Shown here: in pieces, positions 888 through 14,180 of the stretch
Numbering within the stretch: the stretch's first letter is position 1
Layout of the letters: every line of letters starts with the position of its first letter
From: Polyangiales bacterium
Lineage (GTDB): Bacteria; Myxococcota_A; Polyangia; Polyangiales; Houyiibacteriaceae
Direction of reading: 5' to 3'
Length of the DNA stretch: 33,882 nucleotides
Assembly (NCBI GenBank): GCA_045106895.1
Contig: JBGCFM010000210.1
Span: forward strand, 1 to 33,882
The notes under the pieces: generated by a model
Seen by the model: the letters and a program-made list of their open reading frames with translations, nothing else
The model's database searches: none
Told to the model about the DNA's origin: nothing
Program-made: the position numbers and the translations under genes

Positions 888-1006
888 CGCCAATCCCCCT
901 GTTTGTTCGGCTCTCTTGAGTGCGGCCGACTTGTCCGGAGGGAGCATACAAGCTGCGGGCTCCTCGCCGCTAGGCTTGAGCCGCGCGCATGCCCTAGAGT
1001 TGGGTT

Positions 1007-1714
1007 GTGCATCGACCTCTCGGACGAAAGGCGTACACGTCGATCCCGCACCTGCCGGGTTCGCGAACTGCCGGAGACCGTCACATCTCACTTCGCCAAG
1101 CCGAACGTCTGACGTGTGAGGCGCCTCGCGGTTTCGAGGTCGTGGTGCAAGAGAAGCTCGACGGTTCGTGCGTAGCGGCGGCGCGAATCGGCGACGACAT
1201 CGTTGCACTGGGCCGAGCAGGCGACCTGGCGGCGGAGTCACGCAACGCGGGCCGGCGCTTGTGGGCTGCCTGGGTCCACGAGCATCAAGGGCGCTTTCGA
1301 GCGTTGCTTCGGCCGGGGGAGCGGCTTGTCGGAGAGTGGCTGGCCCTCGCGCATTCCACTCACTATTCCCTCGTCCATGAGCCTTTCGTCGCCTTCGATC
1401 TGATGAGCGAGGCTGAACGCCTGACGTCGCTGGCGCTTGGACGGCGACTCCGGCAGACTGGCTTTTGTCTGCCTCACGAAGTTCACCGAGGGGATGCACT
1501 GGCCGTTCCCGCGGCCCTCACGATGCTAGGCCATGGCGGCCACGGCGCGATGGAGCCGCCCGAAGGGCTCGTCTATCGCTTGGAGTCCGAGGGAGCCGTG
1601 GCCCTCATCGCAAAACACGTTCGCCCGGGGAAGGTCGATGGCAGCCTTCTCGAGGAAAACACGGGGAAACCGCCGGTCTGGAACTGGCATCCCGACTTCA
1701 ATGAGCCTCGATGA
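1007..1714 (+). CDS. ATP-dependent RNA ligase family protein (Rnl2-like nucleotidyltransferase domain)
   Basis: KAYTSIPHLPGS N-terminus, motif I EKLDGS, GEW, FVAFDL, EGLVYR, AKHV. Confidence 0.8.
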   Translation: MHRPLGRKAYTSIPHLPGSRTAGDRHISLRQAERLTCEAPRGFEVVVQEKLDGSCVAAARIGDDIVALGRAGDLAAESRNAGRRLWAAWVHEHQGRFRALLRPGERLVGEWLALAHSTHYSLVHEPFVAFDLMSEAERLTSLALGRRLRQTGFCLPHEVHRGDALAVPAALTMLGHGGHGAMEPPEGLVYRLESEGAVALIAKHVRPGKVDGSLLEENTGKPPVWNWHPDFNEPR

Positions 1715-2847
1715 TCCACTTCATCACATCCAACCGAAAGCGCGCTGAACTCGAACTCCTCTTAGGAGGGCTGCCGCTGTCGTTTACGCGCCTGACCCTT
1801 CCACGGCCGTCGGCGGCGTTGCTCGCAGAGCGGGCACAAGAGCGCGCCGCCTCCGCATTCGCCGAGTTAGGTCAAGGATGCATCGCAGAGGTGACGGAGC
1901 TTCGCACCGCGGCCGGGGGCTTCAGTGGCGCGGACTACAAGAAGGCTCTCGAGCGCGAAGGCGACGAGTTTCACGCACGCATCGCAGGCCCCGCCGTCGC
2001 CGCCGTTGCTGTGGCGTACGTCGACGGCGAACAAACCCTCGTCTTCGAGGGGGCTCTTCACGGCGAGCTCTTGGCCGAACCTCGCGGAAGCGGGGGCATC
2101 GGTTGGGACGGTACATTTCAACCCGAAGACACGACGCAGACCTTGGCGGAGATGCGGCACCACAAGAGCTTCACGAACATGCGCTTGCGGCCTTTTCTTG
2201 AGCTCGCGGACGCACTTCGCGGACGTTCCTTTGGCGGCGTCTTCGAAGCGCATATCACCGTGGCACTCGTAGGAGAGGAGGAGCTCGTTCGCTTCGATGC
2301 GCTCTGCTCGGACCTCGCCGTGAAGTCGATCCATATCGTCCTTCCAAGAGGAGAGATTCGTTTTCAGCCAATGACGAGTAGCTACCATCATGGAGAGCTC
2401 CTCGCCGTTCAGGGTGAAGTGTTTGAGCTGGCGAGGCGCATCGCTGGCGCTGGTTTTGAAGTTACGCGTGCGAAGATCGAAGCCACCGGGAGCAACCGGG
2501 AGATTCCTCAGAGCGACGCGGATGCGGAGAGCTTTCCTCACAACTACTTCGAGTTTCACGTCAAGACGCGCATCGCGCCCAGCGCGGACGCCGGCAAGTT
2601 GGCAGAAGCGGTGAGCCTTCACGGCGCGCACCTCTCGCGCAACGCACGAAAGGTCTTCGCCGACGGGACTCGTCAGCACTTCGTGACGCTGCGGGTGTAT
2701 GAAGCGGGACGTCGCCGTGCCGAAGAGCGCTTCGCGACGCTGCGCGACGCGATTCAACAGGCCGGTTTCGAATGGCGTGAGCCGATTCGTGAGTACACGG
2801 TCTACGATTCAAACGTTAGTGTGGACAAAGGATGGCTCCCGACCTGA
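1711..2847 (+). CDS. HAM1/ITPase-like domain fused to an uncharacterised C-terminal domain
   Basis: IHFITSN, VFEG...G, PRGSGGIGWDGTF.P..TTQTLAEM resemble HAM1; C-terminal FEAHITV and YFEFHVK motifs; ATGA overlap with the ligase gene. Confidence 0.65.
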   Translation: MIHFITSNRKRAELELLLGGLPLSFTRLTLPRPSAALLAERAQERAASAFAELGQGCIAEVTELRTAAGGFSGADYKKALEREGDEFHARIAGPAVAAVAVAYVDGEQTLVFEGALHGELLAEPRGSGGIGWDGTFQPEDTTQTLAEMRHHKSFTNMRLRPFLELADALRGRSFGGVFEAHITVALVGEEELVRFDALCSDLAVKSIHIVLPRGEIRFQPMTSSYHHGELLAVQGEVFELARRIAGAGFEVTRAKIEATGSNREIPQSDADAESFPHNYFEFHVKTRIAPSADAGKLAEAVSLHGAHLSRNARKVFADGTRQHFVTLRVYEAGRRRAEERFATLRDAIQQAGFEWREPIREYTVYDSNVSVDKGWLPT

Positions 2848-3649: not shown

Positions 3650-6600
3650 ATGAACGCCCGACTCTTCTGGTTTTTGCTCCTCTGCGCCTGTGGAGCTTCG
3701 ATGAGCCCCCAATCGACACGATTCGCCGGCGGCATGGCCTACGACGAGGAGTCAGCTGCCTCCATGGGAGGAGCCAGCGCGCCGGCGGCGGAGGAAGAGG
3801 GCGACGTCAGCGGGAGTGCGCCACAGAGCTGGCGTCGGCACACGGAGCAAGCGACCTTCGCGCAGGTATCGCTGGGCGGAGGCCACACTCTGGAGCTTCG
3901 GGACGTGCGCGTTTCCGTTCGTGTGGAAGGTCATAGGGCGCGCACCGTTGTCGACCATGTCTTCTACAACCCCCACGCGCGAACTCTCGAGGGCACCTTT
4001 CGCTACTCGCTCCCGCCGGAGGCGACGGTGTCGGGCTACGCGATGTTCCTCGGCACAGGAAGCGAGCAGCCTTCGTTCTTTGGCGACGACGACGAGCAAG
4101 CGATGCGCCGGCGGGAGGCGGCACTCCAAGGAGGCAGCGTCGAGGCGCTGACGCAGTCCGTCGATGAGCGTGACTGGGGCCAGCTTCGCGTGGGGCGCTT
4201 CGTTCGCGCGCAGCAGGGACGTGAAGTGTATGAGAACACGACGAGGCGTAACGTCGACCCAGCGCTGGCGGAGACCGTGGGGCCCAACAGCTTCGAAGCC
4301 CGGGTCTTTCCCATCCAGGCCAACGCCTACCATCGCGTCATCGTCAGCTACGAGCAGACGCTCCCGCGCCTCGGTGACGAACTCGAGTATCTCTTTCCAA
4401 TGCCTGAGGGCGAACTCTCCTCCTTGGACTTCTTGCTTCAGGCAGATGGACAAAGCGTGCGCTCTTTGCGTTACACCGGCGACGTTCGCGGTCACGCCCT
4501 CGGCACCTTCGAGCACCACGTTCGCGTGGAGGGGAACACGCAGCCCGGAGCGCTCTCGTATCGCTTCGGTGTGCGCCATCAGAACGGCGTTGAGGCGCTC
4601 GTAGGCACGGACCCCGTCACGAGCGTGAGCCACTTCGCCCTGCGCGTATCCGCCGACGACACGCTCGGTGGCAACACATCGACGGCTTCCAGCGACGCCG
4701 TTTTTCTCCTCGACACCTCTCTCTCGGAGCACCCGGATCGCTTCAGCATCGATGTCGCGCTTCTTCAGGCCATTCTTCGCGACAACTCGCGCATTCGGAG
4801 GTTCAACGTCGTCACCTTCGACGCCGGCGCGCGCTGGCTCTCGTCCGAGTGGTTGCCAAACTCGGAACAAGGGCGTGCCCGGGCCATGTCGACCATCGAC
4901 GAGGTCCTTCTCGAAGGGGCAACGGACCTCTCCGCCGCGCTCTCCACGCTTCACGCGCCGCCCATGAACGCGAGCGAGAGCGTCGATGTCTTTCTCTTGA
5001 GCGACGGAGCCATCACCTGGGGAGAGCGAGACATCGCGACGCTTGTCGCTCCGCGGCAGTCGCCTTGGAACACAATGCGCACCTTCGCGTACCGCACAGG
5101 CCTGGGCGCGGAGAACACAGATCTGCTCCGTCGCGTCGCGCCGGAAGGGGTCTTCAACTGTCTCTCCATGGACAGCGTCCCAGGCTGCGCCGCGGCTCAC
5201 AACCGTCAGGCGATGCGCATCGAGAGCGTGAGCGTGGAAGGCGTCGGCGAGGGCGCTGAAACCGAAGACGTCCTCATCGCCGGAGGCGCCTCGACCTTCG
5301 CGCCGGGCACGGAGCTCGTCGTTGTGGGTCGCCTTCGCCGACCCGGCGCCGCGCGACTTCGCATTCGTGGTCGCCTCGCCGGACGCGCGATGGAGTGGAC
5401 ACGTTCGGTTCAGCTGCAGCCTACCGGCGAACTCGCGTCGCGCGCATGGGCGGAGGTAGCCGTGGCGCACCTGCTGAGCGGCGGGGACTACTCCCAGGAA
5501 GGTCGCGCGCGCGAAGACCTCGCCGTGTCCATTGGTCAGCACTACCGTGTCCCTTCGCGGGTCACTTCGGTTCTTGTCCTCGAGACAGACGCCGAGTACG
5601 AACAGCACGAGCTCCAGGCAGAGTTTAGCCAATGGAGCCCGGAGACCGTCCCATCCGCGCAGGTGCGCACCTCCTGGAGCCGGCTTCGTCGCGCGCTGGA
5701 AGACGGGGAGAGCCACAACCGTTTGGCGCAGCTCGAAGACGGCCGGATCCTCCGCGAGCTCTCACGCATCGTATCTCAGCGTCCGCGTGCCTTCATTGGA
5801 ACCCCCCGCGACGTACCCCTTGTTCTGCGCTCGGATGTCGGGCGCCGCTATCGCCGCGGGATCACGCGGGACGCGGACAGCGTCGAGCACTTTCGAGATG
5901 AAGCCATTCGGCGGCACGCCGAAGGTCAGACCGGGGCCGCGATCCGCGCGCTCTCGAGTAGCGTGGAGAACGCTCCGACCTCGGCCGAGGTCGCTCGCTC
6001 TCTCGCATACACGCTCATCAGTTGGGGCGAGAACGCGGCGGCGGCGGAGCTGCTTTTTTCGGTCCTCGAGCGGCGCGCCTATGAGCCGCAGAGCTATCGT
6101 GATCTTGCTGGCGCGCTCTGGCTCTACCGTCCGAGCATGACGGCGCTGCTCTTCGAGGCGGCTCTTGCCGGCGAGTGGGACGCGCGCTTTCGCGGGGTGC
6201 TCACCGTCGTCCAAGAAGAGTACGCGCTCTTCGCTCAGGCTTTCATTCGCCAGCAGCCGAACGCGCCTTTGGCGCGCTTCTTACGACAGCGCCAGCAGAC
6301 GCTCGCGCTCCGCGTGCCGGAAGGTGACCTGCGAGTCACGATGACGTGGAACACTGACAACACGGACGTCGACCTCTGGGTCACGGACCCCTCCGGCGAG
6401 AAGTGCTACTACGCGCACCCGGATACGGCGGCCGGTGGACATCTACTCGAAGACGTCACGCGGGGCTTTGGGCCCGAGCGCTTCCAGCTTTCAGACGCGC
6501 CGAGGGGCGAGTACCACGTGCAGGCTCACTACTACGGAAACAACGGAAACCGTCTCGTCGCGGATACCTATGTCACGCTGACGGTGACGCGTTATGTCGG

Positions 6601-6697: not shown

Positions 6698-7639
6698 TCA
6701 ACTCTTGGAGGCCGCGATGCGTCGCTCAAGAAAGTCGACGACGCGCTCGAAGGGCTTCACGTCGAAGTGTTCCGCCACGCTCGGCCGAAGGTTGGAGTTC
6801 GCGTTGACGTCATAGAAGACGAGGCGTCCGTCAGGAGTCTCAAGGTACTCCACACCGCCAACGTCGATGTTGGCGGCCTTGAGGATCTTCTTCGCGGTCT
6901 CCACGGCTGCCGGCGGCACCTCTGGGTAAGGATAGAACTCCACCGGCGGCGTGTTGACGACGGGAACTTCGCAGACGCTCTCTCCGCCTTCGCCCGGGTT
7001 ACAGACCGGGGAGGGGCAGAGGTTGAACTTTCCGTGGGTGACGACGCGCATCGGGTAGAGGAGCTCGCCGTCGAGGACCTCGAGACGAATGATGCCGTGG
7101 CTCGCGTCGTGCGGCAGGTACTCCTGCAAGAGGAAGAGGTTGTCCGGCGCCCAAATGTCGGCGCTGACAAAAGCCTGGCGTAGCTCGTCGGCGTTTTCGA
7201 CGACCTGAATCCGCGCGCCGCTCCCGCCGAGGTCCGGCTTGATCAGCCGAGGCCACGTGTTGTTCTCTTCGATGGCGGCTTCGACGTCGTTGAAGACAAT
7301 GGACTGGGGATGGTCGATGCCGAGCTGTCGACAAAGGGCAACCTGCGCCGCTTTGGAAAGCTCCATCGAGAATGCTTCGGACCCGTTGATGACGTCGCAG
7401 CCGAGGCGCTCCAGGTGACGCATCATGGAGAGCGCCAAGGGCACCGCCCGTTCATTGCCACGGACGTATGCACTTGGGCTGGCTTGGTTGAAGACGACCT
7501 TCGCCAAGGGGGCAGCGTCACTTCCGAAAGCGCATCGCTTGATGTCCACCTTCACGTAGTCGATGCCCCGGGCATCGAGGGCGGAGAAAAGAGGCTCTTG
7601 CCAGAGTGGGTGCTCAAAGAGGATCGCCAAGTCGCGCAT
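6698..7639 (-). CDS. RimK-like ATP-grasp ligase
   Basis: IKPDLGGSGARI, LLQEYLP, GGVEYL...FYDVNANSN. Confidence 0.8.
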   Translation of the reverse strand: MRDLAILFEHPLWQEPLFSALDARGIDYVKVDIKRCAFGSDAAPLAKVVFNQASPSAYVRGNERAVPLALSMMRHLERLGCDVINGSEAFSMELSKAAQVALCRQLGIDHPQSIVFNDVEAAIEENNTWPRLIKPDLGGSGARIQVVENADELRQAFVSADIWAPDNLFLLQEYLPHDASHGIIRLEVLDGELLYPMRVVTHGKFNLCPSPVCNPGEGGESVCEVPVVNTPPVEFYPYPEVPPAAVETAKKILKAANIDVGGVEYLETPDGRLVFYDVNANSNLRPSVAEHFDVKPFERVVDFLERRIAASKS

Positions 7640-7712
7640 CGGACGTCTTTAGTGCCTCATGCGCGGAGTGTCACCCACCCATCCCAACGATCAATACTCG
7701 GGCCCGATGAGT

Positions 7713-8222
7713 TCACCGTTTCGGGCGAGCGCCCCGCGACAGCTCATCCACGCGACGCAGCATCTCCGGAAGCCGGTGCTCTCCGGCCATCGAGGCGATG
7801 CGGCGGGCCGCTGAGTTCGCGCTGCCGGTGCATGTCACATAGAGGGGTTTTGTGGACTTCCCCCGAAGCACCTCCGCCGCCGGCGCTCCGACGTATTCGT
7901 TCTTTGCGACGCCGATCACCTCGACGCGCCCATCCAGAGCTCGCTGAAGGTGTCGGCCGAGACCCGGCTTGCCGCCGCCGAGGTCCACGTAGCCGTCCAC
8001 GATGATCGTCTTCAGATGAAGGCTCTCGTACGCGCGCTTGATGAGGGGCAAGATGCACGGCAGTTCGCGACGAAAGAACTCGCCGGCGGCATAGTCCTCG
8101 ACGACGCCATTGCGCGTGTCCGCCCACTCATGCAGTCGCTCTTTGGCTCTCCACGTCTCGAAGAGCACCGCTCCGGTGATGGCCTCATCGCCAGAGTAGT
8201 GGACGTCCGTCGCTAAGATCAT
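7713..8222 (-). CDS. nfi: Endonuclease V (short form)
   Basis: ILATDVHY, YxxGEFFRRELP, IIVDGY, GLG, IGVAK, KPLYVT, HRLPEMLRRVD. Confidence 0.88.
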   Translation of the reverse strand: MILATDVHYSGDEAITGAVLFETWRAKERLHEWADTRNGVVEDYAAGEFFRRELPCILPLIKRAYESLHLKTIIVDGYVDLGGGKPGLGRHLQRALDGRVEVIGVAKNEYVGAPAAEVLRGKSTKPLYVTCTGSANSAARRIASMAGEHRLPEMLRRVDELSRGARPKR

Positions 8223-8300: not shown

Positions 8301-9866
8301 CTACAGAGTGGCGGCATCGATTACCTGTGTCCACGAGGCGCCATCCGCTTGCACGAACTGCCCGACCACGGTGAACACAGCATCGGAGAAACCTCCCACG
8401 TTGAGAACGTCTGGCCGCTGGAGGACTTGGCGGTGGACGTTCGGCGTCAGATCGATGCAGACCAGCTTGGCCTTTGGATTTCGTTTCTTTAGCGTCATCC
8501 ATTGAGACATCATCTCCGTGCCGCGGCTCCAGCCAGAGCGACCCTTCGCGTCCATCCAAGACTCGTTGTCCGAGATGTAGATGAGTACGTCGACCTTGGC
8601 CTTCTCTGCGTTGAGCAGCGCCAGCGGCGCCGAGCAATTCGTTCCTCCGCCGCCGATAGACGCCAGAGCTCCCGCGATGGACATGATGCTGTCCCGTGGG
8701 TTGATCGGCAGCGTCCGAACCTTGTTCTCGAAGGGCAGAACGCGCGCGAGCGGGTTCTTCCGAAGCAGCGCCGCCGAGATCAGACCCGCGACGTCGACGC
8801 AGCGAACCGCCGTAGTGGACCCGCTACGAAACCCCGTCACGGGGCTCTGCATAGAACCAGAAACATCCGGGCAGATCACGACGTGTCCCGAAAGCTCCGG
8901 GATGTTGTGCGTGGCGTGCTCCATGGCGTCCTGAAGCGCCTCGGAGAGACGCGTGGAGAGCCCCTGTGTGCTGTTCCAAGCGACGAGAAGCTGATACGGA
9001 AAGACTTTTGCGCTCCGGACCTCGTCCTCGTCGCCGATGCGTTTCGCCACGAGTTTGATCATCGCCTCGTCATCGAAGACGCCGTGGCGCTGAAACGTGT
9101 TCAGGTTCATTCGTGTCTCGTGCCAACGCGCACGATGCGCGATGTCCGTCCACTCCGTCTTGCCCAGAGGCAGACCTGTGAGCATTCGTGAGGGCACCTT
9201 CGGCACACCTTGAGACTTATCGCCACGCTTCCACGCCTCGTAGTTCAAGACCGCAGCCGGCAGCTTTGAGAGGTCGTGGGGCTTGCCCAGGAGGTAGCCG
9301 AACATAGCCCGCTGCTCGTCGCTTAGAGGCTTCGGGTGAACCATGCGGATCACGTCCGCGAGGGAGGGGTCGTTGCCCACAGAGTCGCGGAAGAGCTGCA
9401 TCGGCGAGCGCTGCTGGAGCCATCGCTGCACGGCCTTCTTTGGCGCGCTGCCCAGAGATTTTCGTCCGAGCTGACCCGAACGAAGGACCTGCACGAAGTT
9501 GCGCAGCATTCGCCCGTTGTCGATGACGCGGGGAAACGCGAGCTTCATGGCCACAAGACCCTCGGGGCCGCGCGTCGCCAAATGCGCCAGAAGCACAGCC
9601 GGCATGTCTTTCATGAATGCGCGCTCGCGTGCGTAGATCGCCGCCTTCGCGACGTAGCGAGCGTCGCACTGAGCGGCGTGCTCCAGGACCACGTCGAGCT
9701 GCTCTTGGCCTGACACGTAGAACGTGCTGCCAAAACAGCCCGTGGCCGCGAGCTGCGCGAGGGCCGTAGGTGAGTCGAGGATGTACGCCGGCGCGCCCGC
9801 GTGATTCATGCTCGTCGTTTTCGGCGCAGCCTTCGCTGCACTTCGGAATAGGGACTTGATGGCCAT
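8301..9866 (-). CDS. rsr: Ro60/TROVE-vWA RNA-binding protein
   Basis: NHAGAPAY, LAQLAATGC..TFY, MKDMPA, MLRNF, PSLADVIRMVHPKP, PYQLL, DVSGSM, GGGTNCS, ISDNESW, VGGFSD; ATG at 9866 after AAAGGA. Confidence 0.93.
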   Translation of the reverse strand: MAIKSLFRSAAKAAPKTTSMNHAGAPAYILDSPTALAQLAATGCFGSTFYVSGQEQLDVVLEHAAQCDARYVAKAAIYARERAFMKDMPAVLLAHLATRGPEGLVAMKLAFPRVIDNGRMLRNFVQVLRSGQLGRKSLGSAPKKAVQRWLQQRSPMQLFRDSVGNDPSLADVIRMVHPKPLSDEQRAMFGYLLGKPHDLSKLPAAVLNYEAWKRGDKSQGVPKVPSRMLTGLPLGKTEWTDIAHRARWHETRMNLNTFQRHGVFDDEAMIKLVAKRIGDEDEVRSAKVFPYQLLVAWNSTQGLSTRLSEALQDAMEHATHNIPELSGHVVICPDVSGSMQSPVTGFRSGSTTAVRCVDVAGLISAALLRKNPLARVLPFENKVRTLPINPRDSIMSIAGALASIGGGGTNCSAPLALLNAEKAKVDVLIYISDNESWMDAKGRSGWSRGTEMMSQWMTLKKRNPKAKLVCIDLTPNVHRQVLQRPDVLNVGGFSDAVFTVVGQFVQADGASWTQVIDAATL

Positions 9867-9886
9867 GGTGTTTCCTTTCGCATTCG

Positions 9887-9922
9887 GCTGCGAAGCTCGA
9901 TGGCAATCGAGTAGGACTTCAT
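9887..9922 (-). repeat. 3' arm of long-range inverted repeat pairing with 12082-12117
   Basis: 9901-9919 is the reverse complement of 12085-12103 at 18/19 positions; flanking GCTGCG/CGCAGC and GTTC/GAGC also pair. Confidence 0.8.
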
Positions 9923-9929
9923 AGAAAGC

Positions 9930-10049
9930 GGGCGACGAGGTGATGCTGAGACAAGGCTGATGTCCTGCCATTGGACGACCGCGTCCGAAGACGCGACTCG
10001 GAGTCGAACCGAGATAGTCAGAGTGATGTAGTCCCAGCGGCATTCGCCC
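9930..10049 (-). ncRNA. YrlA-type Y RNA, copy 1
   Basis: 5' GGGCGAAUG pairs with 3' UCGCCC; CUGGGAC/GUCUCAG stem; T-arm CUCGG-UUCGACU-CCGAG, closed acceptor hairpin CGCGUC-UUCG-GACGCG, D-arm GUCC-AAUGGCA-GGAC; just upstream of rsr. Confidence 0.88.
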
Positions 10050-10135
10050 TGGCGGAAGATGGAGGAGTCGAACCCCTGCGCGTTTACGCCCCCGGTTTTC
10101 GAAACCGGTGTAGCTCCACAGCCACGTCATCTTCC
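10050..10135 (-). tRNA. tRNA-Ser(CGA), 8/4 fold
   Basis: GGAAGAUG/CAUCUUCC acceptor, G73, CCA; CCGGU-UUCGAAA-ACCGG; long variable arm; T-arm GGGG-UUCGACU-CCUC. Confidence 0.85.
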
Positions 10136-10140
10136 ATTGC

Positions 10141-10594
10141 GCTTCTCCGCCCAGCACGCCGCCCTCTGCGTTGCGCTGCGGCTCGGCATCCACAGATGCC
10201 GTCGCCTTGCGCGCCTTGATGGCGGCGCGCTGGACGAAGAATCGCCGAGGATGTTCTTGGGTCCTCGGACCCGTTGGCCCAGCACGCCGCCCTCTGCGTT
10301 GCGCTGCGGCTCGGCATCTACCGATGCCGTCTTCGGTTGTTGTGCTTCCCCGCCCAGCACGCCGCTGACTGCGTTGCGCTCGGTTCGGCATCCACAGATG
10401 CCCTCACCTCGCGCGCCTTGTCAGCGACGCGCTGGACGAGGAATCACGCGGGGTGTTTTCCTGGCTTCGGGGAAGCTCGGTGGCGCCTTGATGGCGGCGC
10501 GCTGGACGAAGAATCGCCGAGGATGTTCTTGGGTCCTCGGACCCGTTGGCCCAGCACGCCGCCCTCTGCGTTGCGCTGCGGCTCGGCATCTACC
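10141..10594. repeat. Cluster of ~100-bp palindromic (REP-like) elements with an exact 112-bp direct repeat
   Basis: Full copies 10141-10243 and 10344-10445 with central GGCATC-CACA-GATGCC, plus half copies; 10211-10322 = 10483-10594. Confidence 0.85.
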
Positions 10595-10607
10595 TTCGAT
10601 AGTAGTC

Positions 10608-10724
10608 GGGCGACGAGGTTGTACTGAGACGTTTCCCGACGCCCTCCCATTGGGCCACCGCGTGTTGCGACTCGGATTCGAACCGAGATATTCGGGGTCG
10701 TTGTAGTCCCAGCGGCATTCGCCC
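10608..10724 (-). ncRNA. YrlA-type Y RNA, copy 2
   Basis: Same 5' GGGCGAAUGCCGCUGGGACUACA and 3' GUCUCAG...CCUCGUCGCCC as copy 1; T-arm CUCGG-UUCGAAU-CCGAG; D-arm GCCC-AAUGGGA-GGGC; compensatory changes versus copy 1. Confidence 0.88.
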
Positions 10725-10811
10725 TGGAGGAAGCTGGAGGAGTCGAACCCCGACGCGCTTGCGCCACCCGCTTTCCAGGCGAGCTCGGCGACCATCGCCG
10801 ATGCAGCTTCC
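10725..10811 (-). tRNA. tRNA-Ser(GGA), 8/4 fold, extended D-stem, U73
   Basis: GGAAGCUG/CAGCUUCC-U-CCA; D-arm UCGGCG-AUGGU-CGCCGA; CUCGC-CUGGAAA-GCGGG; long variable arm. Confidence 0.82.
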
Positions 10812-10820
10812 CAAGTTTGT

Positions 10821-10920
10821 GCTTCCCCGCCCAGCACGCCGTCTCAGCGTCGCGCCGCGGTTCGGCATCCATAGTGCCGTCGCCTTGCGCTCCTGGGTCT
10901 CGACGCGGTGGACGAAGAAT
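10821..10920. repeat. Diverged third full copy of the palindromic element
   Basis: GCTTCCCCGCCCAGCACGCCG...GGCATCCATAGTGCC...TGGACGAAGAAT. Confidence 0.8.
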
Positions 10921-10988
10921 TATCGTGCGGTGTGCACCCGCGAAGGCGGAGGCATGATTGGCGCGCCTCTTTCCGTTCGGCTCCATCG

Positions 10989-11064
10989 TGGTGTGAATGG
11001 AGGGAGTCGAACCCCCACTGGGCCGAGTTTAAAACGGCTGCCTCTTCCATTGGGCTACACTCAC
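10989..11064 (-). tRNA. tRNA-Leu(TAA), short variable loop
   Basis: 76 nt; GUGAGUG/CAUUCAC-A-CCA; loop UU-UAA-AC. Confidence 0.85.
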
Positions 11065-11153
11065 TGGTGCTGTACGAACTACGCCGCGGGTGTGCACCTG
11101 CGAAGGCGTAGGCGGCGCCTGCAGCTGACGGGTAAGGACGTCAGCATGGAGCT

Positions 11154-11229
11154 TGGTGACGATGGAGAGATTCGAACTCTCACTGAGCTGTTTCTAAGAC
11201 AGCTGCCTCTCCCGTTGGGCTACATCGCC
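11154..11229 (-). tRNA. tRNA-Leu(TAG), short variable loop
   Basis: 76 nt; GGCGAUG/CAUCGUC-A-CCA; GCUGU-CUUAGAA-ACAGC. Confidence 0.88.
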
Positions 11230-11251
11230 GATGTTTGTTTTAGAGAAAAAG

Positions 11252-11327
11252 TGGTGCGAGCGAAGGGAGTCGAACCCCCACTGGGCCGAGTTTGAAACGG
11301 CTGCCTCTTCCGTTGGGCTACACTCGC
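11252..11327 (-). tRNA. tRNA-Leu(CAA), short variable loop
   Basis: 76 nt; GCGAGUG/CGCUCGC-A-CCA; loop UU-CAA-AC; near-duplicate of Leu(TAA). Confidence 0.85.
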
Positions 11328-11351
11328 AGCGTCTTCTCGTCTGAGAAGACG

Positions 11352-11423
11352 TGGTCCCGCCGGGTGGAATCGAACCACCCTCGCCGCCCATATGAAGAGC
11401 GCGCCGGTCCAACCGTCGGCGGG
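11352..11423 (-). tRNA. tRNA-Met/Ile2(CAT) with shortened D-arm
   Basis: CCCGCCG/CGGCGGG-A-CCA; CGCUC-UUCAUAU-GGGCG; T-arm GGUGG-UUCGAUU-CCACC; 72 nt. Confidence 0.72.
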
Positions 11424-11426
11424 ATT

Positions 11427-11654
11427 TGGTAGCGGGGCCAGGAGTCGAACCTGAGTGCTGAGGGATATGAACCCAGTGTCGCGATGGGGTACTTTGACTC
11501 CGAACTCGAGGCCCTCGTCAGCGATCTCGGGTTCGCATCACCTCGAATGTGCAAGCACGTCCTTCGGCGAAGCGACTCCCGACCTCACGGGCGATCATCC
11601 ACGACTAAGGAGCCAAACCACCCCATCGCGACACAGACGCCGGTCTTCCCCGCA
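11427..11654 (-). tRNA. Initiator-like tRNA-fMet(CAT) interrupted by a 157-bp insertion (possible pseudogene)
   Basis: UGCGGGG/CCCCGCU-A-CCA with 1:72 mismatch; GGG-UUCAUAU-CCC; T-arm UCAGG-UUCGACU-CCUGG; insertion between D-arm and anticodon arm. Confidence 0.72.
11477..11633. mobile_element. MITE-like element
   Basis: TG...CA ends; 14-bp perfect TIR TGTCGCGATGGGGT extending to 25 bp with 3 mismatches; flanked by CAG at 11474-11476 and 11634-11636; no transposase. Confidence 0.7.
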
Positions 11655-11694
11655 AAGGAAGCCATCGATGCGCCCGTGGGCACACCAATGGACT

Positions 11695-11770
11695 TGGTGG
11701 AGTCGAGGGGAACCGAACCCCTGACCTCGTGGGTGCAAATCACGCGCTCTCCCAACTGAGCTACGACCCC
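11695..11770 (-). tRNA. tRNA-Ala(TGC)
   Basis: GGGGUCG/CGACUCC-A-CCA with G3:U70; loop UU-UGC-AC; T-loop UUCGGUU. Confidence 0.88.
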
Positions 11771-11783
11771 AAGATTTTCGAAA

Positions 11784-11859
11784 CGGTGATCCGAGCGTGA
11801 ATCGAACACGCGACTTCCTGAATGTTAAACAGGCACTCTCCCTACTGAGCTATCGGATC
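11784..11859 (-). tRNA. tRNA-Val(AAC)
   Basis: GAUCCGA/UCGGAUC-A-CCG; CCUGU-UUAACAU-UCAGG; T-arm GCGUG-UUCGAUU-CACGC. Confidence 0.8.
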
Positions 11860-11873
11860 AAAATGCGCCGGTG

Positions 11874-11945
11874 CGGCAGGTCGTCGAGGAGTTGAACCCC
11901 GCGCAGCTGGTGTTGGAAGCCTGCTTGTGCCCCGGCACACGACCT
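11874..11945 (-). tRNA. tRNA-Trp(CCA), shortened D-arm, degenerate anticodon stem
   Basis: AGGUCGU/ACGACCU-G-CCG; loop UU-CCA-AC; T-arm CGGGG-UUCAACU-CCUCG. Confidence 0.65.
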
Positions 11946-11983
11946 AGAGTTCCCTTCCGAGGAGTTTCCGAATGGAAGGAAAA

Positions 11984-12046
11984 GTGGCGACGAGAAGTTA
12001 GAGAGACATGGCTATCATGCGATGTAGTCCCCCTGGCATTCGCCAC
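11984..12046 (-). ncRNA. Minimal Y-RNA-like element (Ro-binding module only)
   Basis: GUGGCGAAUGCCAGGGGGACUACAUC...GUCUCUCU...UCGUCGCCAC: same termini and GGGACUACA core as the two Yrl copies, no tRNA-like domain. Confidence 0.72.
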
Positions 12047-12051
12047 GAAGT

Positions 12052-12079
12052 TGGTGCGTGAGCTTGGGAAAACCCACGC
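12052..12079 (-). other. ACCA-terminated microhelix
   Basis: GCGUGGGUUU-UCCC-AAGCUCACGC-A-CCA. Confidence 0.45.
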
Positions 12080-12081
12080 GA

Positions 12082-12117
12082 ATAAAGTCCTACTCGATTG
12101 TCAAAGAACGACGCAGC
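12082..12117 (-). promoter_or_regulatory. boxA-like antitermination site within the 5' arm of the long-range duplex
   Basis: CGUUCUUUGACAAU (12110-12097) resembles rrn boxA; complementary to 9887-9922. Confidence 0.65.
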
Positions 12118-12210
12118 ACGACATCCCTCCATGAGCTGGAGGCAAAGAAGTGCATTTGATATGTGCATTTGAAGTGCGCATATCTTCGTCTCTTGTTCGT
12201 TAGAACAAGT

Positions 12211-12286
12211 GGGTGGATCCGGAGGGCATCGAACCCTCAACCGCCCGGGTAAGAACCGGGTGCTCTGCCTGTTGAGCTACGGATCC
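12211..12286 (-). tRNA. tRNA-Lys(CTT)
   Basis: GGAUCCG/CGGAUCC-A-CCC; CCCGG-UUCUUAC-CCGGG. Confidence 0.88.
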
Positions 12287-12287
12287 C

Positions 12288-12362
12288 TGGTGGGGCTGAA
12301 GGGTGTCGAACCCCCAACCGTCCGGGTAAAAACCGGCTGCTCTGCCGTTGAGCTACAACCCC
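12288..12362 (-). tRNA. tRNA-Lys(TTT)
   Basis: GGGGUUG/CAGCCCC-A-CCA; GCCGG-UUUUUAC-CCGGA. Confidence 0.88.
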
Positions 12363-12467
12363 AGGTGGTGTTGCAGCGTCCGTTTGTATCGTTCCATGTG
12401 TTGTCTTTCCCGTGCGACCGTTGAGACTTCAGAGGGGACCCTCAGGAGGATGAGTGCGTCCAAGAAC

Positions 12468-12500
12468 AAAAAAAACCGCCCGAGGCTGGTGCCTGGGCGG
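12468..12500 (-). terminator. Intrinsic terminator (attenuator) upstream of the tRNA array
   Basis: CCGCCC-AGGC-ACCA-GCCU-C-GGGCGG followed by U8. Confidence 0.85.
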
Positions 12501-12535
12501 GTTCGATACGTGTGAGAACGTATTTCGAAGCCGCC
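12496..12535 (-). promoter_or_regulatory. Antiterminator hairpin overlapping the terminator 5' arm
   Basis: GGCGG-C-UUCG-AA-AUACG-UUCUCACA-CGUAU-CGAA-C-CCGCC; the final CCGCC is shared with the terminator. Confidence 0.7.
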
Positions 12536-12708
12536 TAGGTGAGGTTTGCCTCTCCCACGAGCTTGGCCATGAGCTTGGCTACGGGCTTGCTGAGAATTGC
12601 CGATACCGACAAGGATGAAGAACCTAATGAAAGGACGAGCGCATCGAGAGAGCCAAGGTGTTTGCCTTGCCATCGCTTTGCTTCGGTCTGTTCGTTCAGG
12701 TGTTGCAT
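12535..12708 (-). CDS. Putative 57-aa attenuator leader peptide
   Basis: MQHLNEQTEAKRWQGKHLGSLDALVLSLGSSSLSVSAILSKPVAKLMAKLVGEANLT*; stop codon at the base of the antiterminator; no clear SD. Confidence 0.5.
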   Translation of the reverse strand: MQHLNEQTEAKRWQGKHLGSLDALVLSLGSSSLSVSAILSKPVAKLMAKLVGEANLT

Positions 12709-12746
12709 GACGTGTTGGTGTGAGGGGATGCCCCCTCGAGAACTTC

Positions 12747-12774
12747 ATAGTGCACGCATATTTGCGAGGGTCAA
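12747..12774 (-). promoter_or_regulatory. Candidate sigma70-type promoter of the array
   Basis: TTGACC-16 nt-CACTAT; spacer contains the palindrome CGCA-AATA-TGCG. Confidence 0.45.
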
Positions 12775-12862
12775 GAGATGTGATCAATTAAAGTAGATTT
12801 TAAATTCTCGTGTCTCTCGGAAGGCGGTCGCTGCTGGATACACGTGGACTACAATTGGCGCG

Positions 12863-13462
12863 ATGAGCAAAGAGACCTGGGATGAGCGCGCGGACGACTG
12901 GGACGAGCAAGAGGAGACACATGTCTACGCCGCTCAGGCGTTTGAAACATTGGTTCCGTATGTTGAAGAACATCTCGGCGAGTGGAGGAGCTTGCGCGTC
13001 CTCGACTTTGGAGCGGGCACCGGACTGCTGACGGCGAAGCTCGCGCCCAAGTGCCGACAGCTCGTTGCCCTCGACCTCTCGCCGAAGATGATCGCGCAGC
13101 TCGACAAGAAGGCCACGGCGGCAGGGTGGGACAACGTCTCGTCCGTCGCAGGGACGCTGAGCGCACTCGACGACACCGGCGCGTTCGATCTGATCGTTGC
13201 GTCCTCGGTGTGTAGTTTCCTCTCGGACTTCCCCAGGGAGCTACGCAAGCTCTCTTCAATGCTCCGGCCGGGGGGCTTGTTTGTGCAATGGGATTGGCAA
13301 CAGAACGCAGCCACCGAGTGGTCTGACGGCTTCTCGGAAGAGGACCTCCGCCGGGCTTACGCTCCAGCGCAGCTCGAAGTCGTTCGCGCGAGTCTCGGCT
13401 TCACGTTTGCCTTTGATGGCAAGGGACTCGAGGTGTTGATGGGAGTTGGCAAGAGAGCGTAG
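12863..13462 (+). CDS. Class I SAM-dependent methyltransferase
   Basis: VLDFGAGTGL, ALDLSPKMI, FDLIVAS, LRPGG. Confidence 0.9.
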   Translation: MSKETWDERADDWDEQEETHVYAAQAFETLVPYVEEHLGEWRSLRVLDFGAGTGLLTAKLAPKCRQLVALDLSPKMIAQLDKKATAAGWDNVSSVAGTLSALDDTGAFDLIVASSVCSFLSDFPRELRKLSSMLRPGGLFVQWDWQQNAATEWSDGFSEEDLRRAYAPAQLEVVRASLGFTFAFDGKGLEVLMGVGKRA

Positions 13463-13498: not shown

Positions 13499-14062
13499 TT
13501 AGGAGGCGAAACTCTCGGGGTCGGCGTCGCCAAGGGGAGGCGGAAGACCGGGGAGCGCGGTTTGGTTCTCAATGTCGAGGAGGATGTCCTCGAAGGACTC
13601 TTCGTTTTCTTCGCACCACGACTCGACGCATACAGGGTGCAGGTAGCCCGCGCCCTTTCGTGTGAAGTTCCCCGTGTCGATCTCACGCTCCACGGCGATA
13701 CGAACGCTGCCTTTTTCGATGGCGTCATCACAGAGAATGCACTTGGCGCGGCCTGTCGGGGCGAGGTCCGCGTTGGGGAGTGCACCGCTTCCCTTTGAGC
13801 CTTTTCCGGCGCTGCTCTTGATGAGCGCGTGAAGCTCGTCGCGATTCGGGACCTCGTCCGAATACGCTTCGAGGGCGGGACCCACGAGGTCTCCTTTGGC
13901 GCCGGCGGCACACTTCAGGTGATGCCAGACTTTCTGTACGCCAGCCGAGCCAAACTGGCTGGGCACCTCTTCGCCGAAACGCAGGTCGCCCTTGGGGATC
14001 TTGTCTTTGCACGTTCGGCACGCGGCGCGTCCCGAAGGAGAAACATGAATGCTGTGTGCCAT
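13499..14062 (-). CDS. Tandem PARP-type zinc finger protein
   Basis: SPSGRAACRTCKDKIPKGDLRFG...WHHLKC and APTGRAKCILCDDAIEKGSVRI...YLHPVC; AAGGAG SD. Confidence 0.82.
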   Translation of the reverse strand: MAHSIHVSPSGRAACRTCKDKIPKGDLRFGEEVPSQFGSAGVQKVWHHLKCAAGAKGDLVGPALEAYSDEVPNRDELHALIKSSAGKGSKGSGALPNADLAPTGRAKCILCDDAIEKGSVRIAVEREIDTGNFTRKGAGYLHPVCVESWCEENEESFEDILLDIENQTALPGLPPPLGDADPESFAS

Positions 14063-14180
14063 GGTGGTCCGTTGCTCCTTGTTGGTCGCGGGAATCTCGC
14101 ACGACGAGGAGAGGGGCGGCAAGGGCGAGGAAGCGCGAATCTATCGAAGGCTTCACCTGGAGGCGGCGCTATAGTGCGCC

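Follow-up and report, generated by a model that had tools for sequence, protein, structure and literature searches.

A predicted long-range RNA helix with a boxA-like leader strand around a tRNA and Y RNA gene array upstream of rsr in Polyangiales

An inverted repeat around the array upstream of rsr

The 33,882-nt stretch of contig JBGCFM010000210.1 of a Polyangiales bacterium (GCA_045106895.1, genome G000; hereafter the window, meaning the whole stretch of DNA that was analysed) carries on its minus strand an array of tRNA and Y RNA genes followed by rsr, which encodes the Ro60 orthologue. Much of this array is bracketed by the two arms of an inverted repeat (I1), and the leader-side arm contains a boxA-like motif. 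Leader-trailer helices with boxA are a textbook feature of rRNA (rrn) operons, and the preliminary description of this DNA had likened the two arms to the stem of an rRNA precursor. The features on which the analysis centres, listed in the direction of transcription, are the following:

12082..12117, minus strand: 5' arm (leader strand) of inverted repeat I1; RNAduplex energy with the 3' arm -56 to -64 kcal/mol; homologous arms in 12 loci
12093..12106, minus strand: boxA-like core CUUUGACAAUCGAG (14 nt) inside the 5' arm; exact in 11 of 12 loci
9923..12081, minus strand: bracketed 2.16-kb block (ARAGORN, Rfam, repeats, folds)
9887..9922, minus strand: 3' arm (trailer strand) of I1, ending 20 nt before the rsr ATG
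8301..9866, minus strand: rsr, directly 3' of the helix; Pfam vWA_Ro60 (PF25045) 5.1e-17 and TROVE (PF05731) 2e-7, both above the cut-offs

The repeat search of the window returned arms of 36 nt that are 81% complementary and 2159 nt apart, and according to the register table 31 of the 36 arm positions pair, including two G·U pairs. The details of the preliminary description were reproduced on the minus strand: UGACAAUCGAGUAGGACUU (12103-12085) pairs with AAGUCCUACUCGAUUGCCA (9919-9901) at 18 of 19 positions with a single A·C mismatch, the helix extends through GUUC/GAGC (with one U·G among its pairs) and GCUGCG/CGCAGC (6/6 paired), the boxA-like GUUCUUUGACAAU is located within the 5' arm at 12109-12097, and 20 nt lie between the end of the 3' arm at 9887 and the rsr ATG at 9866.

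From the statistics of the window alone, which are suggestive only, the inverted repeat is modestly unusual: the window contains two exact 16-nt inverted repeats within 8 kb, compared to 0.26 on average, and never more than 3, in 100 dinucleotide shuffles. RNAduplex, proposed in the preliminary description as a check, gave the true arm -63.9 kcal/mol but did not single out the pair, as an unrelated site reached -65.9 kcal/mol. The inverted repeat is confirmed as real by its conservation in relatives and not by the window statistics.

Scans of RNAduplex energy between the rsr 5' untranslated region and the upstream DNA were dropped due to GC-rich noise, with spurious hits at -60 to -79 kcal/mol. 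Their place in the search for partner arms was taken by an ungapped helix scan, which has a background of 14-21 pairs. The other exact 16-nt inverted repeat of the window (3779-3794 / 7871-7886) lies inside a VIT/vWA open reading frame (ORF) and an Endonuclease V (EndoV)-like ORF and is probably a product of chance.

Conservation of the helix and of its boxA-like core

The comparison set consisted of 201 sampled genomes of the order, supplemented by a protein-seeded metagenome scan that yielded six loci, one of them with both arms. Two arms were found in 12 loci: the window, G002, G028, G045, G102, G026, G205, G015, the metagenome locus L053, G089, G109, and G135. These belong to the closest rsr clade (66-75% protein identity) and to a family that has the array but no rsr match. 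Both arms are on one contig in nine loci (the window, G045, G102, G205, G015, L053, G089, G109, and G135); in G002, G028, and G026 they are on separate contigs of one genome, and the span is known only for the other nine. Among these nine, the distance from arm to arm ranges from 171 nt in L053, around a single YrlA, to 7.1 kb in G089.

Pairing was counted in one ungapped register of 32 columns, with the arms extracted separately for each locus. In this register, 335 of 384 cells pair (87.2%, a count that ignores kinship among the loci), compared to 36-46% when the partner is slid by 1-3 columns. When trailer and leader partners were swapped between genomes, 0 of 2000 permutations reached the observed count (mean 289.5, sd 7.6). 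Compensatory changes in homologous loci, which the preliminary description had named beforehand as a test, were found, with two-sided changes in 16 of the 32 columns across the 12 loci. The bulk of this covariation is outside the core, in columns +14 to +24 and -7 to -2. Furthermore, G·U cells outnumber A·C cells by 32 to 10, which favours an RNA read from the strand of the tRNA, Y RNA, and rsr genes over a DNA repeat. Together, these patterns support the predicted duplex as a conserved structure at the RNA level. For the three contiguous short forms, folding predicts that a ~45-bp leader-trailer helix stacks on the YrlA stem (z = -7.7; RNAalifold).

The gene content between the arms differs greatly among genomes, while the enclosed genes share one orientation in every locus. 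In relatives with rsr, the homologous 3' arms are found 43-51 nt before the rsr ATG, and in loci with rsr the end of the 3' arm always precedes the rsr Shine-Dalgarno sequence by 10-25 nt. Three genomes (G089, G109, and G135) keep a helix of 31-36 pairs, although the rsr search returned no match in them, which weakens the earlier suggestion that the helix generates the 5' end of the rsr mRNA. We thus assign the helix to the array unit rather than to rsr expression. In two of these genomes, a gene of the SPFH/Band 7 family is located inside the helix, between the last tRNA and the trailer arm (L091 of G089, 972-2477, minus strand; L094 of G135, 1265-2377, plus strand). In the corresponding position, L092 of G109 has a 485-codon open frame on the sense strand, and the G109 trailer arm is followed by a tRNA-Thr gene. 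The enclosed block can thus hold an mRNA, and the proposal that the arms bracket noncoding RNA genes applies to the tRNA and Y RNA genes of the window but not to G089 and G135 with their enclosed SPFH/Band 7 gene.

The helix scan found nothing above the background of 14-21 pairs in loci L056, L048, L050, L051, and L057, and either no helix or just a partial 21-pair match in G170 and G125. In G001, which belongs to the same genus as G000, the distal array, the trailer arm, and rsr have been lost and glutamate-synthase-like and LysR genes occupy their place, while the EndoV-like gene found after rsr in the window stays in position. The flanking helix positions of G001 have decayed while the core is kept, and this genome still carries GCTCTTTGACAATCGA without a partner arm.

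With three additional upstream bases, the core (12109-12099) reads GUUCUUUGACA, which agrees with GYTCTTTAANA, the gamma-proteobacterial form of boxA (PMC5725501, available text), at 10 of 11 positions. Published boxA sequences include UGCUCUUUAACA of Escherichia coli and AUGAUCUUUGAAA of Bacillus subtilis (PMC13753749, available text) and GCTCTTTGAAA of Myxococcus xanthus, identical in its rrn operon and CRISPR leader according to the available part of the preprint (bioRxiv 10.64898/2026.07.09.737519). The window motif differs from the M. xanthus form at two positions, both degenerate (Y or N) in the E. coli consensus, and the description of the 5' arm motif as boxA-like is thereby supported by these partially available sources. 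In G001 and G109, the motif reads GCTCTTTGACA.

The trailer complement of the core carries 0-3 changes across loci, whereas the leader core is exact in 11 of 12, so the leader is constrained beyond the needs of pairing. The 13-mer CTTTGACAATCGA occurs 26 times in 24 of the 201 genomes, compared to two occurrences of a reversed control, and about half of its hits are within tRNA arrays. The core is single in G000 apart from chance look-alikes, and relatives have one or two copies per genome. Boxes resembling boxA also precede the first tRNA of more distant arrays (L028, L030, L034, and L035) by 24-65 nt, with no partner arm detectable at these heads.

The genome's own rrn operon on contig C69 offers a direct comparison. 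Its leader motif ACUUUGAAAACUGAAUCGG is located inside the 5' strand of a 16S leader-trailer helix of ~40 bp (-50.6 kcal/mol), and a second copy of the motif follows the spacer tRNA-Ile and tRNA-Ala genes before the 23S gene. The likeness to an rRNA precursor stem was thus borne out at the structural level. The array mirrors this local layout, with tRNAs outside the helix, a boxA-like motif in the leader strand, and the trailer kilobases away. G000 also encodes NusB and RNase III.

The bracketed block and its surroundings

The window order from 5' to 3' on the minus strand begins with two tRNA-Lys genes, a spacer, the 5' arm, a Y-RNA-like stem, a tRNA-Trp-like element, tRNA-Val, tRNA-Ala, and a 220-nt RNA, and continues with tRNA-Met, three tRNAs with Leu anticodons, a tRNA-Ser/YrlA pair, ~460 nt of repeats, a second tRNA-Ser/YrlA pair, the 3' arm, the Shine-Dalgarno sequence, and rsr. 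The block between the arms contains the mini-Y stem, eight tRNA genes called by ARAGORN, the tRNA-Trp-like element, the structured RNA, two YrlA-like Y RNAs, and dispersed structured repeats. Its individual elements and those directly upstream are:

12212..12362, minus strand: two tRNA-Lys genes, 5' of the helix and outside it (ARAGORN and Rfam)
12118..12211, minus strand: AT-richer 94-nt spacer between tRNA-Lys and the 5' arm, conserved with G001 (alignment)
11985..12045, minus strand: short Y-RNA-like stem (direct-repeat families D12 and D13; sequence)
11875-11946, minus strand: tRNA-Trp-like element, aligning at 81-90% to tRNA-Trp genes of the G001 and G002 arrays
11424-11645, minus strand: structured RNA of ~220 nt (z = -4.65), in which a long rod-like hairpin (inverted repeat I2) precedes a T-arm-like hairpin and ...GCUACCA
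10989-11064, 11154-11229, and 11252-11327, minus strand: three tRNAs with Leu anticodons (UAA, UAG, CAA), 76 nt each (ARAGORN)
10604..10725, minus strand: YrlA-like Y RNA 1; matches Rfam RF02553 with 48 bits (E 6.2e-9), short of the gathering score (69)
10137-10600, minus strand: structured repeat units, among them a 112-nt sequence in two identical copies; a 209-nt stretch has z = -6.5
9926..10050, minus strand: YrlA-like Y RNA 2, immediately preceding the 3' arm; matches Rfam RF02553 with 50.3 bits (E 1.4e-9), short of the gathering score (69)

The array of the window comprises 10 ARAGORN tRNA genes in 2.3 kb, and those of relatives reach 20-24. Rfam matches between the arms are to tRNA and YrlA-like RNAs only, with no rRNA match; the 16S gene is on contig C69. 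Both YrlA-like matches are within 0.9 kb of rsr, and a copy from a relative (L022) scores 70.1 bits. The tRNA-Ser-like genes at 10725-10811 and 10050-10135 (minus strand) abut YrlA-like RNAs 1 and 2 without a spacer, and the tRNA-Ser and Y RNA unit is duplicated, with 88% identity over 74 nt (family D10). The Y-RNA-like stem at 11985-12045 has the 5' strand (GGCGAAUGCC..GGGACUACA) and the 3' strand (CUCGUCGCC) common to both YrlA copies and lacks a tRNA-like domain.

Several other elements depart from standard gene models. Neither ARAGORN nor Rfam called a tRNA at the tRNA-Trp-like element (11875-11946) in the window. At 76 nt, the three tRNAs with Leu anticodons are too short to include the long variable arm that bacterial tRNA-Leu carries; 85-nt tRNA copies with UAA and CAA anticodons are present elsewhere in G000, and the short type recurs in G002. 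The 3' third of the 220-nt RNA (to 11474) aligns at 87% with G001, and permuted tmRNA is the sole Rfam family that it matches, weakly (E 0.039). Copies of the structured repeats are found on at least six other contigs of G000 and in G001; this is a dispersed small element or RNA family within the array.

Upstream of the helix, relatives have Tyr-Lys-Lys-Gln tRNAs before the 5' arm, matching the layout in the window. The spacer contains two direct copies of CAAATGCAC, 13 nt apart (12130-12190, minus strand) and largely conserved in G001, which could be an operator or an unusual promoter. Terminator-like sites in 9700-12900 are few and weak (n = 4, compared to 2.6 expected).

Homologues of rsr are present in 40 of the 201 sampled genomes, with 50-75% identity, and many are located behind co-oriented tRNA arrays. 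In the window, rsr is followed by EndoV-like and ATP-grasp (RimK-like) ORFs (6698-8222, minus strand), neither of which is rtcB or rtcA, and a PARP-type zinc-finger ORF is located upstream of the array (13499-14122, minus strand). G000 has a second tRNA array on contig C74 (15452-19670, minus strand), with 17 tRNA genes and running to the contig end, which is headed by the boxA-like UUUUGAAAACCGAAG ~50 nt before tRNA-Asn. The arrays largely duplicate the dispersed tRNA set.

Interpretation and comparison with known systems

We think it rather probable that the arms serve as leader and trailer strands and form a conserved long-range RNA helix, which closes a stable-RNA block within a polycistronic transcript running into rsr and works in an rrn-like manner through boxA and RNase III. 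In the mechanism we propose, boxA on the nascent RNA would recruit NusB/S10 to RNA polymerase, and the Nus complex would keep elongation processive over 2-7 kb of highly structured untranslated RNA and hold the leader strand near the RNA exit channel. The trailer strand would pair with the leader strand on emerging, and the resulting helix of ~35-50 bp would be an RNase III substrate. Cleavage would free the block from the tRNAs upstream and the RNA downstream (here the rsr mRNA), and Y RNA and tRNA maturation would begin with it. From this arrangement we infer co-transcription, binding of Nus factors, tethering, and cleavage by RNase III, and Nus antitermination and RNase III excision at the array, as put forward in the preliminary description, may be regarded as a well-founded inference. 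As boxA is here part of the helix, its unpaired and paired states must succeed each other in time. Because no rRNA is enclosed, the unit is not an rrn leader-trailer unit, though it would be rrn-like in its working.

Several observations weigh against this reading. boxA has to be single-stranded for NusB/S10 to bind. The core agrees with the boxA-like motif of the genome's own rrn operon at 10 of 14 positions and differs at four, a 13th locus (L046 of G222) retains a short helix with a degenerate boxA core, and the helix scan detected no trailer arm at the second array on contig C74. No helix above background was found in 14 more distant rsr loci (rsr identity <=59%) or in the close relative G047. 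The 12 two-arm loci are related, with G205 and G015 near-identical, and the cell-count statistics, which ignore this kinship, thus overstate the number of independent events. A scan of 9700-12900 for sigma-70-like promoters returned no sites. Finally, the domain Rho_RNA_bind (PF07497) was found in none of 26 genomes (G000 and 25 relatives) and in one of 11 same-order genomes of a phylum sample, compared to 48 of 50 outside the order.

Among the alternatives, the one that survives best is a selected RNA helix with a job other than an rrn-type one, either as an end clamp against exonucleases or in tuning rsr near its ribosome-binding site, with the core binding a factor other than NusB/S10. We regard this as unlikely, though to be taken seriously. 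The helix is conserved and its cleavage is a prediction, the trailer arm keeps its short distance from the rsr Shine-Dalgarno sequence, the L046 helix is kept with a degenerate boxA, and the failure to find Rho in the order removes the classical need for boxA. A clamp or a function in rsr tuning is less consistent with the helix of the three genomes without an rsr match, one of which has tRNA-Thr after its trailer, and with the retention of the core at the heads of arrays without a helix. A factor other than NusB/S10 would have to be reconciled with the closeness of the core to published boxA forms, including that of M. xanthus in the available part of its source.

A second alternative is an anti-boxA switch, in which the trailer would sequester boxA after the array and strip off the Nus complex, returning downstream termination and translation control to normal. 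The trailer pairs straight across the boxA-like core in all 12 loci, and the helix ends where the non-array genes start, as such a switch would predict. However, most of the covariation is outside the core, which argues for selection of a long helix and not mere masking of the core, and boxA is likewise placed inside the helix in the genome's own rrn operon, a layout that is by convention interpreted as a processing stem. We therefore rate the switch as improbable.

Explanations at the DNA level, in which the arms would be terminal inverted repeats of a mobile tRNA-array cassette or inversion sites and their pairing a by-product, appear very improbable. They would suit the variable content between the arms and the view of tRNA arrays as horizontally mobile, found in the part of the literature available to us. 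Nevertheless, the core is single-copy in G000 and present once or twice per genome in relatives, the Pfam search of the window revealed no transposase or recombinase domains in the ORFs beside the arms, and the uniform orientation of the enclosed genes means that no inverted state was seen. In addition, the sequence of one arm is more strongly constrained than that of its partner, and both the ratio of G·U to A·C cells (32:10) and the compensatory changes within genomes across divergent genomes point to RNA. Chance complementarity in GC-rich, repeat-rich DNA would accommodate the modest window statistics and the spurious site that RNAduplex placed above the true arm, but it is refuted, to the point of being negligible, by the recurrence of the pair in 12 loci with covariation.

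The rrn-like reading of the helix finds its closest parallel in bacterial rrn leader-trailer helices, which likewise have complementary flanks kilobases apart around a stable-RNA block, a helix of at least 30 bp, a boxA-type motif in the leader, and tRNA genes immediately beyond the helix. In contrast to rrn operons, tRNAs and Y RNAs are enclosed here, together with an SPFH gene in some relatives, instead of 16S or 23S rRNA, and the span varies from 0.17 to 7.1 kb among relatives. The likeness rests on sequence and predicted structure, from which cleavage and Nus binding are predicted. As at the 5' untranslated region of suhB and the leaders of CRISPR arrays (PMC5725501, PMC13753749; available text), boxA would head a long untranslated array or non-rRNA transcript. 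Unlike here, the available descriptions of these cases include no trailer strand pairing with boxA, and boxA is explained there by protection from Rho, a factor that the searches did not find in this order.

Bacterial Y RNAs are known beside rsr and from polycistronic precursors, sometimes with a tRNA, and the co-transcription of Y RNA and tRNA upstream of rsr is documented for Deinococcus radiodurans and Mycobacterium smegmatis (PMC4201824, available text). The Yrn1/Yrn2-tRNA-Asp locus of D. radiodurans, YrlA/YrlB of M. smegmatis, and the rsr-yrlBA-rtcBA locus of Salmonella resemble the window in that Y RNAs with a tRNA-like module adjoin rsr. The available text of PMC4201824 describes no flanking leader-trailer helix or boxA for these bacterial loci, which also differ from those studied here, where the unit is shared by entire tRNA arrays with as many as ~20 genes. 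Dense co-oriented arrays that largely duplicate the dispersed tRNA set are also known as tRNA array units or L-arrays from Acidithiobacillus, Mycobacterium, and cyanobacteria. tRNA array units are defined by at least 20 tRNA genes at a density of at least two per kb and are transcribed as polycistrons (PMC4758250, available text); the window array has this density with a smaller number of genes (10 by ARAGORN). A look-up of terms in the available text of PMC4758250 and PMC8421152 returned no Y RNA, Rsr, boxA, inverted repeat, or Myxococcota. In the literature covered, with subscription journals and supplements outside its scope, we found neither boxA nor a leader-trailer helix described for rsr/Y RNA or tRNA-array loci.

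The usual role given for boxA antitermination is protection from Rho. The order may lack canonical Rho, judging by the PF07497 counts and by the best score for TIGR00767 in G000, 78 bits and far under the cut-off of 509. The rationale of Rho protection is doubtful here because Rho was not found in the order. If this absence holds, boxA would act via processivity, pausing, or tethering of the leader strand, the last in line with the tether model of leader-trailer pairing (PMC10250234, available text). A more far-reaching proposal, which we put forward tentatively as possible rather than probable, is that the boxA leader-trailer helix serves as an rRNA-like assembly line in an order that appears to have lost Rho. 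A Nus-modified polymerase would loop out the entire array, 2-7 kb of tRNAs and of Y RNAs that bind Ro60 and in some cases an SPFH gene, which would be closed by the ~40-bp helix and released or matured as one, with boxA acting mainly as a tether and chaperone and not against Rho. The short form, with the helix on a single YrlA, would then be the ancestral pre-Y-RNA stem. Because Rho was not detected in the order, these loci could help to distinguish what the Nus complex does as an RNA chaperone from what it does against Rho.

To our knowledge, the maturation pathway of bacterial Y RNAs is poorly defined, and the helix yields concrete candidate processing sites. The arms also provide a simple sequence signature by which arrays of this kind can be located and delimited in genomes of Myxococcota. 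The conserved boxA helix suggests that rRNA-style signals for transcription and processing have been reused for another class of stable RNA, and a covarying leader-trailer helix with an embedded boxA would extend the co-transcriptional logic of rRNA to Ro60/Y-RNA biology.

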